From Candidatus Cloacimonadales bacterium (GTDB lineage: Bacteria; Cloacimonadota; Cloacimonadia; Cloacimonadales; JAFGVF01): a stretch of DNA of 64,000 nucleotides. The translations under genes were made by a program, and so were the position numbers. Below the pieces are notes generated by a model, which did no database searches, had not been told where the DNA came from, and was given only the letters and a program-made list of their open reading frames with translations. The DNA lies in assembly GCA_963678315.1 (NCBI GenBank), contig OY782781.1, positions 1,344,001 to 1,408,000 of the forward strand, read 5' to 3'. Below are positions 5,153-55,702 of the stretch, in pieces (the first letter of the stretch is position 1; each line of letters begins with the position of its first letter).

Positions 5153-5160
5153 AATCTACA

Positions 5161-5440
5161 TACTTTGGACACAAGCTTCTAGCTTGTATCTGAGACATTT
5201 TTCCAAACGTCTCTACAGTTGGATTGCAAGCAACAGTATTCGCCTGTCACAGTCCCTGCTTGCGAAAGTGTTTGGGATTGTAAGCTTCCCAGCTTACGAA
5301 TCTATTTTGCGTAAGCATGAACTTTGTTCAACCTATCGGTGGATGCTTACACTCCCTTTTCTGAGACGTTTTCAAACGTCTTTACTTTGGTACACAAGCT
5401 TCTAGCTTGTATCTGAGATGTTTTTCCAAACGTCTCTACT
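5161..5440. repeat. Cluster of REP-like palindromes, including a ~57-bp direct repeat
   Basis: tactttgg(t)acacaagcttctagcttgtatctgaga...ccaaacgtctctac at 5161 and 5384; GGATTG(T/C)AAGC...GCTTRCGAA units and an inverted ...GGATGCTTACACTCC unit, shared with the arrays at 31.55 kb and 55.2 kb. Confidence 0.85.
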
Positions 5441-5591
5441 GTTGCTTGCACCCCAAAACCTTTTCTGTAGATACACACGGACGTGTGTATATGAAGTTCA
5501 TGAAAATGAACGAATAAAAATCATTTGATAAACGATGAAATACTTTTTATCATCGAGACGAATGTCCGTTCGTCTCTATAAGATATTGTCC

Positions 5592-27327: not shown

Positions 27328-27404
27328 GGGGGTGTAGTTCAGTTGGTTAGAACGTCTGCCTGTCACGCAGAAGGTCGCGAGTTCGAGTCCCGTCACTCCC
27401 GCCA
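27328..27404 (+). tRNA. tRNA-Asp(GTC)
   Basis: Cloverleaf: GGGGGTG/CACTCCC acceptor, TCTGC-CT-GTC-AC-GCAGA anticodon arm, GTTCGA T-loop, encoded CCA; TTGACA at 27268. Confidence 0.97.
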
Positions 27405-27519: not shown

Positions 27520-27870
27520 GAACGGCTGTTTGTCTCTACAATAACTCCTCATGCTACACGCTTTTAGGCGTATGCCATACGCCCCTACAAGTCCACTCCT
27601 CACTTTCACTCCTAACTGCCTATGTGCTCTTGCCCCACCTGCATAAAAAGGCAATTTAATGCAGGAGGCTAGTGGGAATAAGTTAAACCCAAATAAAGCA
27701 CTAGGATTTAAAAAATAGCACTATATTATTCCTGTGAGGGCGTAGCTTTAGCGAAGACTCATGGCAAGAATAACTTCCATAATCTCAACTAGAATATATA
27801 TTATTCAAGCTTCGATTCTGTAAGATATTTTGCTGAAAGACCGTGTCCGGCTTAGACGGAATCTGCACTA
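27520..27870. repeat. Mixed cluster of REP-like palindromes
   Basis: GGCGTATG-C-CATACGCC-CCTAC (GTAG-type on the minus strand); CCTGCAT..ATGCAGG hairpin shared with 41480-41520; gtagctttagcgaagac; micro-cassette at 27839-27860. Confidence 0.7.
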
Positions 27871-27926
27871 TTTTCATAAAGCCTAATGCATCATCTAGGT
27901 TGAATTTTTAAGATGTTGGTAAATAT

Positions 27927-31552: not shown

Positions 31553-31865
31553 GGGATTGTAGCCATCCTTGGCTACGAAAGAGAGATACTGGGATTGTAG
31601 CCATCCTTGGCTACGAAAGTGATTAGCGTAAGCATGAACACAGTTCAGCCCTAAAGGGCGGATGCTTACACTCCAGAAAATAAACAGGATTGTAGCCATC
31701 AGTCAAGCCTGACACGGTCCTTGGTAACGAAAGAGAAATACTGGGATTGTAGCCATCCTTGGCTACGAAAGTGATTAGCGTAAGCATGAACACAGTTCAG
31801 CCCTAAAGGGCGGATGCTTACACTCCAGAAAATAAACAGGATTGTAGCCATCCTTGGCTACGAAA
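31553..31865. repeat. REP/BIME-like array
   Basis: GGATTGTAGCC-ATCCTT-GGCTACGAAA at 31554, 31592, 31687 (with insert), 31744 and 31839; two inverted GCGTAAGCA...TGCTTACACTCC units; 152-bp higher-order period. Confidence 0.9.
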
Positions 31866-31874
31866 TGATATAAA

Positions 31875-31903
31875 AAAGCCTAGGTTAAAATGACCTAGGC
31901 TTT
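31875..31903. terminator. Bidirectional terminator between porB and gcvPB
   Basis: aaagcctaggtta-aaa-tgacctaggcttt. Confidence 0.8.
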
Positions 31904-38193: not shown

Positions 38194-38268
38194 GGTCCAG
38201 TAACTCAGTGGTAGAGTATCTGCCTTTTAAGCAGAGAGTCGATGGTTCGAGCCCATCCTGGATCACCA
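38194..38268 (+). tRNA. tRNA-Lys(TTT)
   Basis: GGTCCAG/CTGGATC acceptor; TCTGC-CT-TTT-AA-GCAGA; encoded CCA. Confidence 0.96.
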
Positions 38269-38272
38269 TTTT

Positions 38273-38347
38273 GACCCCTTCGTCTAGTGGTTAGGACTCA
38301 AGATTTTCATTCTTGCAACAGGAGTTCGATTCTCCTAGGGGTCGCCA
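38273..38347 (+). tRNA. tRNA-Glu(TTC)
   Basis: GACCCCT/AGGGGTC acceptor; CAAGA-TT-TTC-AT-TCTTG; encoded CCA. Confidence 0.96.
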
Positions 38348-38354
38348 CCTTTAG

Positions 38355-38430
38355 GTCTCCATCGTCTAGTGGCCTAGGACTCTGGATTCTCATTCCAGCA
38401 ACAGGGGTTCAATTCCCCTTGGAGATGCCA
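38355..38430 (+). tRNA. tRNA-Glu(CTC)
   Basis: GTCTCCA/TGGAGAT acceptor; CTGGA-TT-CTC-AT-TCCAG; encoded CCA. Confidence 0.95.
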
Positions 38431-38453
38431 GTGTAAAAGTAAAAAATATATAT

Positions 38454-38528
38454 GACCCCTTCGTCTAGTGGTTAGGACTCAAGATTTTCATTCTTGCAAC
38501 AGGAGTTCGATTCTCCTAGGGGTCGCCA
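38454..38528 (+). tRNA. tRNA-Glu(TTC), second identical copy
   Basis: Same sequence as 38273-38347; followed by hairpin aaaaagcttatc..ggtaagcttttt. Confidence 0.96.
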
Positions 38529-38588
38529 AAAAAGCTTATCAGCGAGGTAAGCTTTTTTAGACCGTTAATCTATTCTAAAGATAGATTT

Positions 38589-38664
38589 GGACCTATAGCT
38601 CAGTTGGTAGAGCCTTCGGCTCATAACCGAACGGTCGGGGGTTCGACTCCCTCTGGGTCCACCA
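38589..38664 (+). tRNA. tRNA with CAT anticodon, probably tRNA-Ile2 (lysidine type)
   Basis: GGACCTA/TGGGTCC acceptor; TTCGG-CT-CAT-AA-CCGAA; lacks initiator features (C1 mismatch, GGG/CCC anticodon stem); resembles known Ile2 sequences. Confidence 0.9.
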
Positions 38665-55210: not shown

Positions 55211-55702
55211 GGTACGTAAGCAACAGTCTTCGCCTGTCACAGTCCCTGCTTGCGAAGTGTTTTTTGTGTAAGCAGGGATGCTTACACTCCATTTTCGGAT
55301 TGTAAGCTTCCAGCTTGCGAAAGGTTGCTTTTTGGATTGTAAGCTTCCAGCTTACGAAAGGTTGCTTTTTGGATTGTAAGCTTCCAGCTTGCGAAATGTT
55401 TTTTGTGTAAGCAGGGATGCTTACACTCCATATTCGGATTGTAAGCTTCCAGCTTACGAAAGGTTGCTTTTTGGATTGTAAGCTTCCAGCTTACGAAAGG
55501 TTGCTTTTCGGATTGTAAGCTTCCAGCTTGCGAAGTGTTTTTTGTGTAAGCAGGGATGCTTACACTCCATATTCGGATTGTAAGCTTCCAGCTTACGAAA
55601 GGTTGCTTTTTGGATTGTAAGCTTCCAGCTTACGAAGTGTTTTTTGTGTAAGCAGGGATGCTTACACTCCATATTCGGATTGTAAGCTTCCAGCTTACGA
55701 AA
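55211..55702. repeat. REP/BIME-like patterned tandem array
   Basis: Nine GGATTGTAAGC-TTCCA-GCTTRCGAA units at 55297, 55334, 55371, 55436, 55473, 55510, 55575, 55612, 55677 (spacings 37,37,65,37,37,65,37,65) plus four inverted GTGTAAGCA-GGGA-TGCTTACACTCC units. Confidence 0.93.

Follow-up and report, generated by a model that had tools for sequence, protein, structure and literature searches.

Exactly placed hairpin cassettes in REP-type and other dispersed repeats of an uncultured Cloacimonadota bacterium

The window analysed here is a stretch of 64,000 nucleotides (positions 1344001-1408000) of the single-contig, 2.99-Mb genome (32.8% G+C) of an uncultured Cloacimonadota bacterium, and it contains arrays of short hairpins whose loops are either a few nucleotides long or filled with a further structured sequence. 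These repeats are pieces of a system of the type formed by repetitive extragenic palindromes (REPs), their mosaic arrays and doublets (bacterial interspersed mosaic elements, BIMEs, and REP doublets forming hairpins, REPINs) and REP-associated tyrosine transposases (RAYTs). One of the loop fillings, cassette A, forms a discrete, structured and sharply bounded module that recurs in unrelated repeats and in related genomes; at least six unrelated host repeats exist in filled and empty versions with exact boundaries. On balance we lean towards a composite reading in which a REP/BIME host system carries a second filling, cassette B, as a loop extension, and in which cassette A and its relative, cassette C, form a discrete module, probably acquired through a Y1 transposase, that represents a minimal non-autonomous insertion element. 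An earlier inspection of the window from its letters alone (the sequence-only reading) had described such cassettes and attributed them to an undescribed site-specific system that writes both at a fixed TC dinucleotide. Every sequence it quoted is present in the window where it had been placed, and its observation is real; the TC rule and a single writer for both cassettes are not supported.

Cassette A has the form NNNG-7-nt loop-CNNN-CACRG and is 19-21 nt long; it consists of a 4-bp stem, a loop (TCTTCGC, TCAAAGC, TCTAAGC and others) and a CACRG tail. A search anchored on loop and tail, in which stem pairing was not required, returned 71 copies in the genome and none for the reversed motif, a pattern far beyond chance. 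The stem is fully complementary in 60 of the 71 copies and occurs in five versions (TCAG in 27 copies, ACAG in 20, ATCG in 7, TCCG in 5 and CCCG in 1), while hybrid TCAG/CTGT stems are found in 4. Cassette A is dispersed, is nested at exact positions within other repeats and keeps its stem through compensatory changes, features attributed to the small dispersed repeats (SDRs) of Nostocaceae.

The hosts of these copies are diverse. Y-type REPs, a subtype described below, hold 31 of the 71, followed by a ~120-nt composite element, f (11), degenerate REP arms (8), a REP with GCATTCA arms (7), an element with terminal inverted repeats (TIR element, 7) and a long palindrome, g (3); in another 4 the left half derives from a GCCGGC-type REP that belongs to a different RAYT. 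Empty counterparts of the filled sites had been predicted, and they were found, with sharp cassette ends, in several unrelated hosts. Hairpins with GTAAGCT arms are A-filled in 3 cases and empty in 31, and those with GTAAGCA arms in 1 and 14, respectively. GTAGCCA hairpins are empty at ~36 sites, and a separate inventory of GGATT-GTAGCCA gave 8 A-filled and 32 empty copies. Of the GCATTCA REPs, 8 are filled, with three additional bases in the loop, and 9 are empty; in one more copy a variant cassette is present in the opposite orientation. Palindrome g has 3 filled and 2 empty copies, and its identical site is occupied by two versions of the cassette. In family f, 10 copies are filled and 25 empty.

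The TIR element is 222 nt long (consensus TTTAACCCA...TGGGTTTAA), is present in 22 copies genome-wide and has two independent insert slots. Slot 1 is filled by cassette A in 6 copies and empty in 16; slot 2 is filled in 9 copies and empty in 13, its occupant being cassette C, a 31-nt relative of A (TGAG-TCTTCGC...-CTCA-CAGG). All four slot combinations exist, in 4, 2, 5 and 11 copies. The copy in the window (27683-27904, minus strand) has both slots filled, with a TCCG/CGGA version of cassette A at 27841-27860 in slot 1 and cassette C at 27731-27761 in slot 2, both on the minus strand, and contigs assembled from public sequencing runs skip exactly the 31 bases of cassette C. The sequence-only reading had assigned all cassettes to REP loops; this holds for true REP-type hairpins, which are tied to a RAYT-like Y1 gene, and does not hold for its site at 27839, which belongs to this TIR element. 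Longer elements whose ends match the cassettes or cassette halves were also looked for in the genome, and the search returned only the 31-nt cassette C and no gene-bearing element. Around the window's copy, the interval 27683-27904 is covered at repeat-level read depth in all four public runs. Adjoining the element, at 27632-27665, lies a member of a dispersed hairpin family (…CCTGCATTAAA…TTTAATGCAGG…) that occurs at several other genome sites and was frequent in the hairpin screen, and a tRNA gene at 27328-27401 directly adjoins the element as well.

In REP-type hairpins cassette A is placed precisely where the 5' arm meets the loop's TCC. Of 39 distinct contexts, 18 have a perfect stem of at least 5 bp around the junction, as compared with 5.7% of random positions. 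The first two bases of the cassette are TC in 38 copies, AC in 23, AT in 7, CC in 2 and AG in 1, and the two bases that follow it are TC in 52, CC in 11, TA in 6 and TT in 2 (n = 71). On the left, the adjoining base is A in 47 copies, T in 13 and C in 11, with CA (40), AC (11), AT (7), CT (6), AA (5) and GA (2) as the adjoining dinucleotides. A site-specific system with a 2-nt TC core, whether IS110/IS621-like or of the CT type known from RAYTs, would write both cassettes at a fixed TC, and several observations are consistent with such a system: cassette A always abuts the loop's TCC in REP-type hairpins, TCC lies on its right in 47 of the 71 copies, and those versions that start with TC produce the TC...TC arrangement. 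This arrangement is found in only 22 of 71 copies, however. The left TC changes together with its pairing partner on the far side of the loop, which places it within the stem of the cassette; the TC often seen on the right comes from the TCC of the REP loop, and in 19 of the 71 copies the right flank is CC, TA or TT instead. Cassette B, for its part, lies beyond the TCC and is inseparable from its host, and the TC that had been taken for its right-hand boundary lies inside its second mini-hairpin, where GTTCA pairs with TGAAC. An IS110-type enzyme had also been proposed; the corresponding DEDD transposase family (PF01548, DEDD_Tnp_IS110) gave 0 matches in the genome, in a search to which the controls responded. 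A TC-core system that writes both cassettes is thus highly improbable, and insertion of the IS110/IS621 kind was set aside as a class for cassette A on the counts just given.

Cassette A is also found beyond this genome. A 20-nt degenerate pattern, which matches 23 copies in the window's genome and gave 0 control matches, is present in 10 of 231 other genomes of the phylum, namely seven of the nine in one genus of another family and three further genomes; it is absent in all 11 genomes of the window's own family. When one genome per species was scanned with a 20-mer in four variants, 22 stretches were obtained, of which 16 lie in Cloacimonadota, 3 in entries named 'uncultured bacterium' and 3 as singletons in other phyla, set against an estimated handful of matches expected by chance. 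The contexts in other genomes comprise hairpin loops, intergenic DNA and coding sequence, and a stem of at least 5 bp surrounds the junction in only 4 of 21 of them by a measure that allows no bulges. An 18-mer of the cassette matched metagenomes 67 times, always singly, with no match in a REP-like hairpin context and many in GC-rich sequence, in a collection from which records of the window's own lineage may be absent, and we read these matches as chance.

The clearest coding context occurs in one genus, where cassette A forms an in-frame insert of 21 nt (7 residues) in the coding sequence of a sorting domain of the type IX secretion system (T9SS). The filled protein reads ...FSVTQS-AVSGSDG-SSFVTLDIYN..., and an empty paralogue reads ...FSVPQT-SSFVTLEIYN.... 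In the DNA, the filled version consists of CACAAAGCG, the reverse-complemented cassette and TCCT-CGTTTGTG, and the empty version of CACAAACG-TCCT-CGTTTGTG. The coding site is itself an 8-bp hairpin with a TCCT loop, and the 21 extra bases again stand ahead of the TCC. A comparison of the cassette-bearing protein across five genomes of the same genus retrieved only paralogues, so that the 7-residue difference is not allelic. The window's genome likewise encodes T9SS sorting domains; its 72 sorting-domain motifs contain no such insert, and none of its credible genes carries cassette A. At two loci of other genomes of the phylum, L098:1380-1724 (G136) and L107:1501-1845 (G159), the residues AVSGSDG or AMSGSDG stand between the first two conserved segments of the T9SS C-terminal sorting domain.

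The conservation of form raises the possibility that cassette A has a function, as a DNA hairpin bound by a protein or as a small stem-loop in RNA, and that it is maintained by selection and repeatedly recruited and is not selfish. Pairing is kept across five compensating stem versions, loop and tail are conserved, and the module is shared by three families of the phylum, all of which would fit such a role. On the other hand, the cassette occurs in both orientations in some hosts, is translated where it lies inside coding sequence, and in the window's genome is seen only inside other repeats. It also has no counterpart in Rfam, even at permissive thresholds: at gathering thresholds only tRNAs were recognized in the window, and up to E 10 no match was obtained for the hairpins and cassettes in the window or in 9 loci of other genomes. 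We consider recruitment of a functional motif an improbable explanation. The tRNAs include a cluster of five genes at 38194-38661. A terminator-like hairpin at 31864-31899 (minus strand), outside the hairpins and cassettes at issue, gave a weak sub-threshold match to the Rfam family Acido-Lenti-1 (16.7 bits against 37).

The hairpins that host the cassettes have the hallmarks of REPs. Genome-wide there are 205 perfectly pairing hairpins with arms G[TC]A[AG]GC[ACT]; their loops measure 3-4 nt in 76 cases (TCCC, TCCT, TCC or TCT) and are longer in 129, mostly 24-32 nt, so that the dimorphism between filled and empty loops is both real and large. The feet of the hairpins are GTAG, GTAA and GCAA, and many copies are dispersed in intergenic DNA, as is typical of REPs with a GT[AG]G foot. 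Two subtypes can be distinguished. The Y subtype consists of GGATT, a 7-bp stem arm, a mostly empty TCCY loop, the opposite arm and GAAAG, and its strict pattern occurs 59 times in the genome and never in 200 others from the phylum. The Z subtype reads GGAGT-GTAAGCA-TCC-[B]-TGCTTAC-GC. Adjacent Y and Z units are inverted in 68 of 68 pairs, with median gaps of 13-27 nt, which is the arrangement of BIMEs and REPINs (PMC6006769).

The host system also has its enzymes. Nine matches to PF01797 (Y1_Tnp) lie above cut-off in the genome, each an open frame with HUH (HxH) and Y motifs, and they divide into three IS200-like genes (150-153 aa), one of which lies at 1107153-1107614, and six RAYT-like genes (179-204 aa). 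The best NCBIfam match of the RAYT-like class (179-191 aa) is REP_Tyr_transpos, at 62-64 bits and hence below the cut-off of 80. One RAYT-like gene (1121495-1122034, 179 aa) has arrays of Y and Z hairpins on either side, including an A-filled copy; it lies 222 kb upstream of the window, in line with the sequence-only reading, which had placed the enzyme outside the window. The other RAYT-like genes are flanked by separate hairpin families, one family per gene. Among 201 genomes of the phylum, 40 encode homologues of the RAYT-like proteins, the best of which are 52-54% identical, and a link to the cassette is not evident among them. Six of the nine Y1 genes (two IS200-like and four RAYT-like) lie within 22 kb (1104220-1126245) and form a REPtron cluster. 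Two 343-aa reverse-transcriptase genes (PF00078; 1079753-1080382 and 2505986-2506615) are each situated within ~1-1.5 kb of cassette-bearing repeats, and two more RVT_1 matches are split across adjacent frames.

The RAYT-linked repeats of related genomes bear on the direction of change. In 6 of 10 flanks of RAYT homologues, the neighbouring REPs have short loops and the form GGA..-7-bp stem ending in CA-TCC[CT]-TG..., and the cassette A anchor was found at 0 of 13 such loci. The short state is presumably older and the filled forms derived, at the level of the repeat family and not of single sites. The possibility that long forms are ancestral, which had been named as grounds for rejecting insertion, finds no support at that level.

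Cassette B behaves differently from cassette A. Among the GGAGT-GTAAGCA hairpins, 70 were parsed as B-filled, 31 as 'other' and 6 as empty; on inspection the 31 proved to be mostly B copies shortened by the arm finder, so that ~100 of ~106 carry B. Four of the 6 empty copies lie in the window's own array at ~55.3-55.7 kb. Outside this host, a context-free search gave only two matches read as true B. A degenerate B pattern has 87 matches in the genome, and one or two single-mismatch matches in each of 10 of 231 other genomes, approximately the level of the reversed control. B is composed of two mini-hairpins with compensating changes and, together with the REP arms, forms a three-way junction. 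Its first stem is TGAAC/GTTCA in 58 of 100 copies and TGAAG/CTTCA in 13, and its second is ACC/GGT in 51 and GCC/GGC in 15, with ACCC/GGGT and GCCC/GGGC as rarer forms, the remaining copies in this count being mostly mis-parsed by the regular expression. It lies beyond the loop's TCC, on the opposite side from cassette A, and its ends are not exactly placeable, the filled loop being TCC plus 23 nt and the empty one TCCC or TCT. Short and long self-pairing loops thus coexist within a single REP family, as has been described for the GTAG-REPs of Proteobacteria, where both loop variants coexist per family (PMC3733652). On the precedent of those published variants, we read B as a structured loop variant, specific to this lineage, that characterizes the Z partner and spreads only within the Z REP, with no sign of separate insertion.

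The two kinds of filling occur side by side in the arrays of the window. In the first, on the plus strand, a Y-type REP (GGATT-GCAAGCA...TGCTTGC-GAAAG) at 5221-5268 contains cassette A at 5233-5252 and, directly after it, its native TCCC loop at 5253-5256; the next unit is an empty Y-type REP (GGATT-GTAAGCT-TCCC-AGCTTAC-GAA) at 5275-5300. On the minus strand, and therefore inverted relative to its Y neighbour, a Z-type REP of the form given above occupies 5309-5355, with cassette B at 5318-5340, inside the interval 5318-5343, folding into the mini-hairpins ACC/GGT and TGAAC/GTTCA. Further parts of this array (5160-5220 and 5360-5445) contain the hairpins GAGACGTTT-TTCC-AAACGTCTC and ACAAGCT-TCT-AGCTTGT, both of which recur elsewhere in the genome next to cassette-bearing REPs. 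A mosaic array at 31554-31865 has the order Y (empty), Y (empty), Z (B), Y (A-filled), Y (empty), Z (B) and Y (empty), with Y units on the plus and Z units on the minus strand, and its core is a tandem 152-bp unit. The filled hairpin (31687) and the empty one (31839) that had been pointed out in it do occupy matching positions of this unit. The filled one carries a 19-nt version of cassette A with a TCAG/CTGA stem at 31699-31717 (plus strand), between the arm GTAGCCA (31692-31698) and the loop TCCT (31718-31721), and its 3' arm is mutated to TGGTAAC. The Z-type REP at 31626-31674 (minus strand), which has a 28-nt loop and a B with the GCCC/GGGC stem, is repeated identically at 31778-31826, and cassette B lies inside 31635-31662 and 31787-31814 (minus strand). 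In the third array, a REP with arms GTAAGCA...TGCTTGC at 55211-55257 (plus strand) contains cassette A at 55223-55242 and the loop TCCC at 55243-55246. It is accompanied on the minus strand by an empty Z-type REP (GGAGT-GTAAGCA-TCCC-TGCTTAC-AC) at 55266-55290, one of only 6 B-less copies in the genome. Empty hairpins were delimited at 31559-31576, 31597-31614, 31749-31766, 31844-31861 and 55268-55285.

Under the composite reading that we favour, at least six unrelated host repeats in this genome, and other hosts elsewhere in the Cloacimonadota, would each have gained cassette A in a separate, rare event. The resulting composites multiply with their host repeat, and cassettes are exchanged between repeat copies by recombination. 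The first acquisition per host was probably a cut-and-join reaction on single-stranded DNA, carried out by one of the nine Y1 transposases. In Escherichia coli, TnpA-REP requires the GTAG foot, cuts single-stranded DNA adjoining REPs at C^T and forms a covalent end that can be transferred to another strand with a 3'-OH (PMC3479197). Here, Y-REPs are co-oriented with the replichores defined by cumulative GC skew in 92 of 95 copies and at 36 of 42 loci, A-filled Y-REPs at 15 of 15 loci, and Z units run in the opposite orientation at 39 of 58 loci. Such a strong co-orientation of Y-REPs with the inferred direction of replication is expected if the repeats are handled as single-stranded DNA. A more far-reaching proposal is that cassette A is a mobile mini-hairpin of ~20 nt, cut and pasted as single-stranded DNA by a host Y1 enzyme (RAYT or IS200-like) into the loops of other hairpins, whether in REPs, TIR elements, palindromes or coding sequence, and spread in this manner through several Cloacimonadota families. 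We consider this unlikely; if it is true, the cassette would be among the smallest transposable units and would provide a second, independent SDR-like case, with candidate enzymes.

A number of observations weigh against acquisition by a Y1 enzyme. The origin and terminus behind the strand bias were placed by GC skew alone (minimum at ~730 kb, maximum at ~2000 kb). No Y1 clade tracks cassette A among the phylum genomes compared, and IS200-like homologues gave no signal of association, as they occur in 5 of the 10 genomes that carry the cassette and in 86 of the 221 others. The junction bases of cassette A are not constant, unlike the C^T rule of the E. coli enzyme. None of the 71 copies lies in unique DNA of the window's genome. 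All 10 filled copies of family f share one altered right arm, and cassette versions correlate with host family, which indicates that most copies are amplified composites and not fresh insertions. Ordinary recombination between cassettes could account for chimeric copies such as GTAGCCA|TCAG..CTGT|TGCTTGC, or for GCCGGC-type left halves joined via cassette A to GCAAGCA right halves. Finally, no clean filled/empty pair at an orthologous site was readable between strains in public contigs, where only the loss of a whole 152-bp unit was seen. Six public runs contain half or more of the window's sampled words, and their contigs break inside the arrays; parts that they leave uncovered carry no weight either way. 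One contig from run X6 joins position 31585 to 31738 and has one unit fewer (31586-31737), the unit with the A-filled hairpin; this shows that the array varies between strains, not that a cassette was inserted.

An alternative is that no dedicated insertion took place, and that the cassettes are ordinary repeat variants spread by homologous recombination, gene conversion or template switching at hairpins during replication, with transfers between families being rare events of illegitimate recombination. Much of the evidence is compatible with this explanation: cassette versions track host families, the breakpoints of chimeras fall at the cassette edge or centre, the sister-strain contig differs by a complete 152-bp unit, the four slot combinations of the TIR element fit exchange between copies, and there is no conserved junction motif. 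What it accommodates less readily is that at least six host contexts without common flanking homology carry the module with identical ends, that the module recurs in other families of the phylum in other contexts, coding sequence included, and that two versions of the cassette occupy the identical site in palindrome g. We regard spread by recombination without dedicated insertion as possible, at a level well short of probable, and continue to lean towards the composite reading.

The outcome matters for two questions that are open in the field, namely how REP-type repeats diversify and whether units smaller than a REPIN can move alone. The genome is a compact system in which to address them, with its nine Y1 genes, its REP families that share a TCCY loop and a sharply bounded 20-nt module present or absent at that loop. 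If a Y1 enzyme does move the module, a minimal substrate for single-strand transposition could be defined with oligonucleotides. If not, these arrays would be a clean example of recombination shuffling sub-repeat modules into mosaics. In practical terms, the arrays break short-read assemblies and differ between near-identical strains. Of greater interest is how far cassette A extends, both in its range of hosts and across lineages.

Several known systems invite comparison, and a search of one literature library gave, among the titles and opening lines of abstracts listed, no description of cassettes in REP loops or of REPs in Cloacimonadota. The term 'undescribed', applied earlier to the system, is nevertheless too strong for its kind, as small nested repeats are known from Nostoc and loop variants of GTAG-REPs have been published (PMC3733652). 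The arrays of the window share with the REP/BIME/REPIN and RAYT systems of E. coli and Pseudomonas (PMC3116915, PMC3479197, PMC6006769) short hairpins with a GT[AG]G foot that recur many times between genes, two REP subtypes that are paired in inverted orientation and combined into mosaic arrays, and a Y1 HUH gene flanked by its own REPs, with several RAYT/REP pairs per genome. They differ in that they occur in Cloacimonadota, that the TCCY loop is conserved across the REP families of different RAYTs, that the partner REP has a self-folding loop of 23-28 nt, that a 20-nt module is common to unrelated repeats and that the RAYT-like proteins score below the REP_Tyr_transpos cut-off. The GTAG-REP families of Di Nocera et al. 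(2013; PMC3733652) have short loops and self-complementary long loops of up to 27 bp, like cassette B; in the portion of that paper available, these variants stay within one family, and no counterpart of a cassette that crosses families and enters coding sequence, as A does, is described.

For cassette A, the closest precedent is provided by SDR1-8 of Nostocaceae, to which it is likened by description and not by sequence. The Nostoc SDRs, as presented by Elhai and colleagues in 2008, are reportedly 21-27 nt long, nested in other repeats and conserved in structure with compensatory changes, and the machinery that mobilises them is said to be unknown. The present case lies in a different phylum, and its hosts are RAYT-linked REPs and a TIR element. 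SDR5 inserts precisely inside the highly iterated palindrome HIP1, and SDRs are confined to Nostocaceae (PMC5861425, PMC4390886); the window's genome falls outside that group, with 0 matches to the photosystem reaction-centre family PF00124.

Elements of the IS200/IS605 group and their miniature derivatives resemble cassette A in single-strand handling by a Y1 enzyme, recognition of hairpins, seamless insertion without target duplication and a strand bias with respect to replication. Their two ends form different hairpins, and they insert on the 3' side of a fixed tetra- or pentanucleotide. Cassette A has a single 4-bp hairpin, with neither a fixed target word nor a linked gene; with this single hairpin and its variable left bases, it was not classed as a miniature element derived from IS200/IS605. 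Lastly, the tolerance of an in-frame palindromic repeat in a protein loop is shared with the Rickettsia palindromic elements (RPEs) and with REPs found in tnpA-REP genes (PMC6006769), and the insert in the T9SS sorting domain differs from these in measuring only 21 nt (7 residues) and in its position, within a hairpin loop that the coding sequence itself forms.

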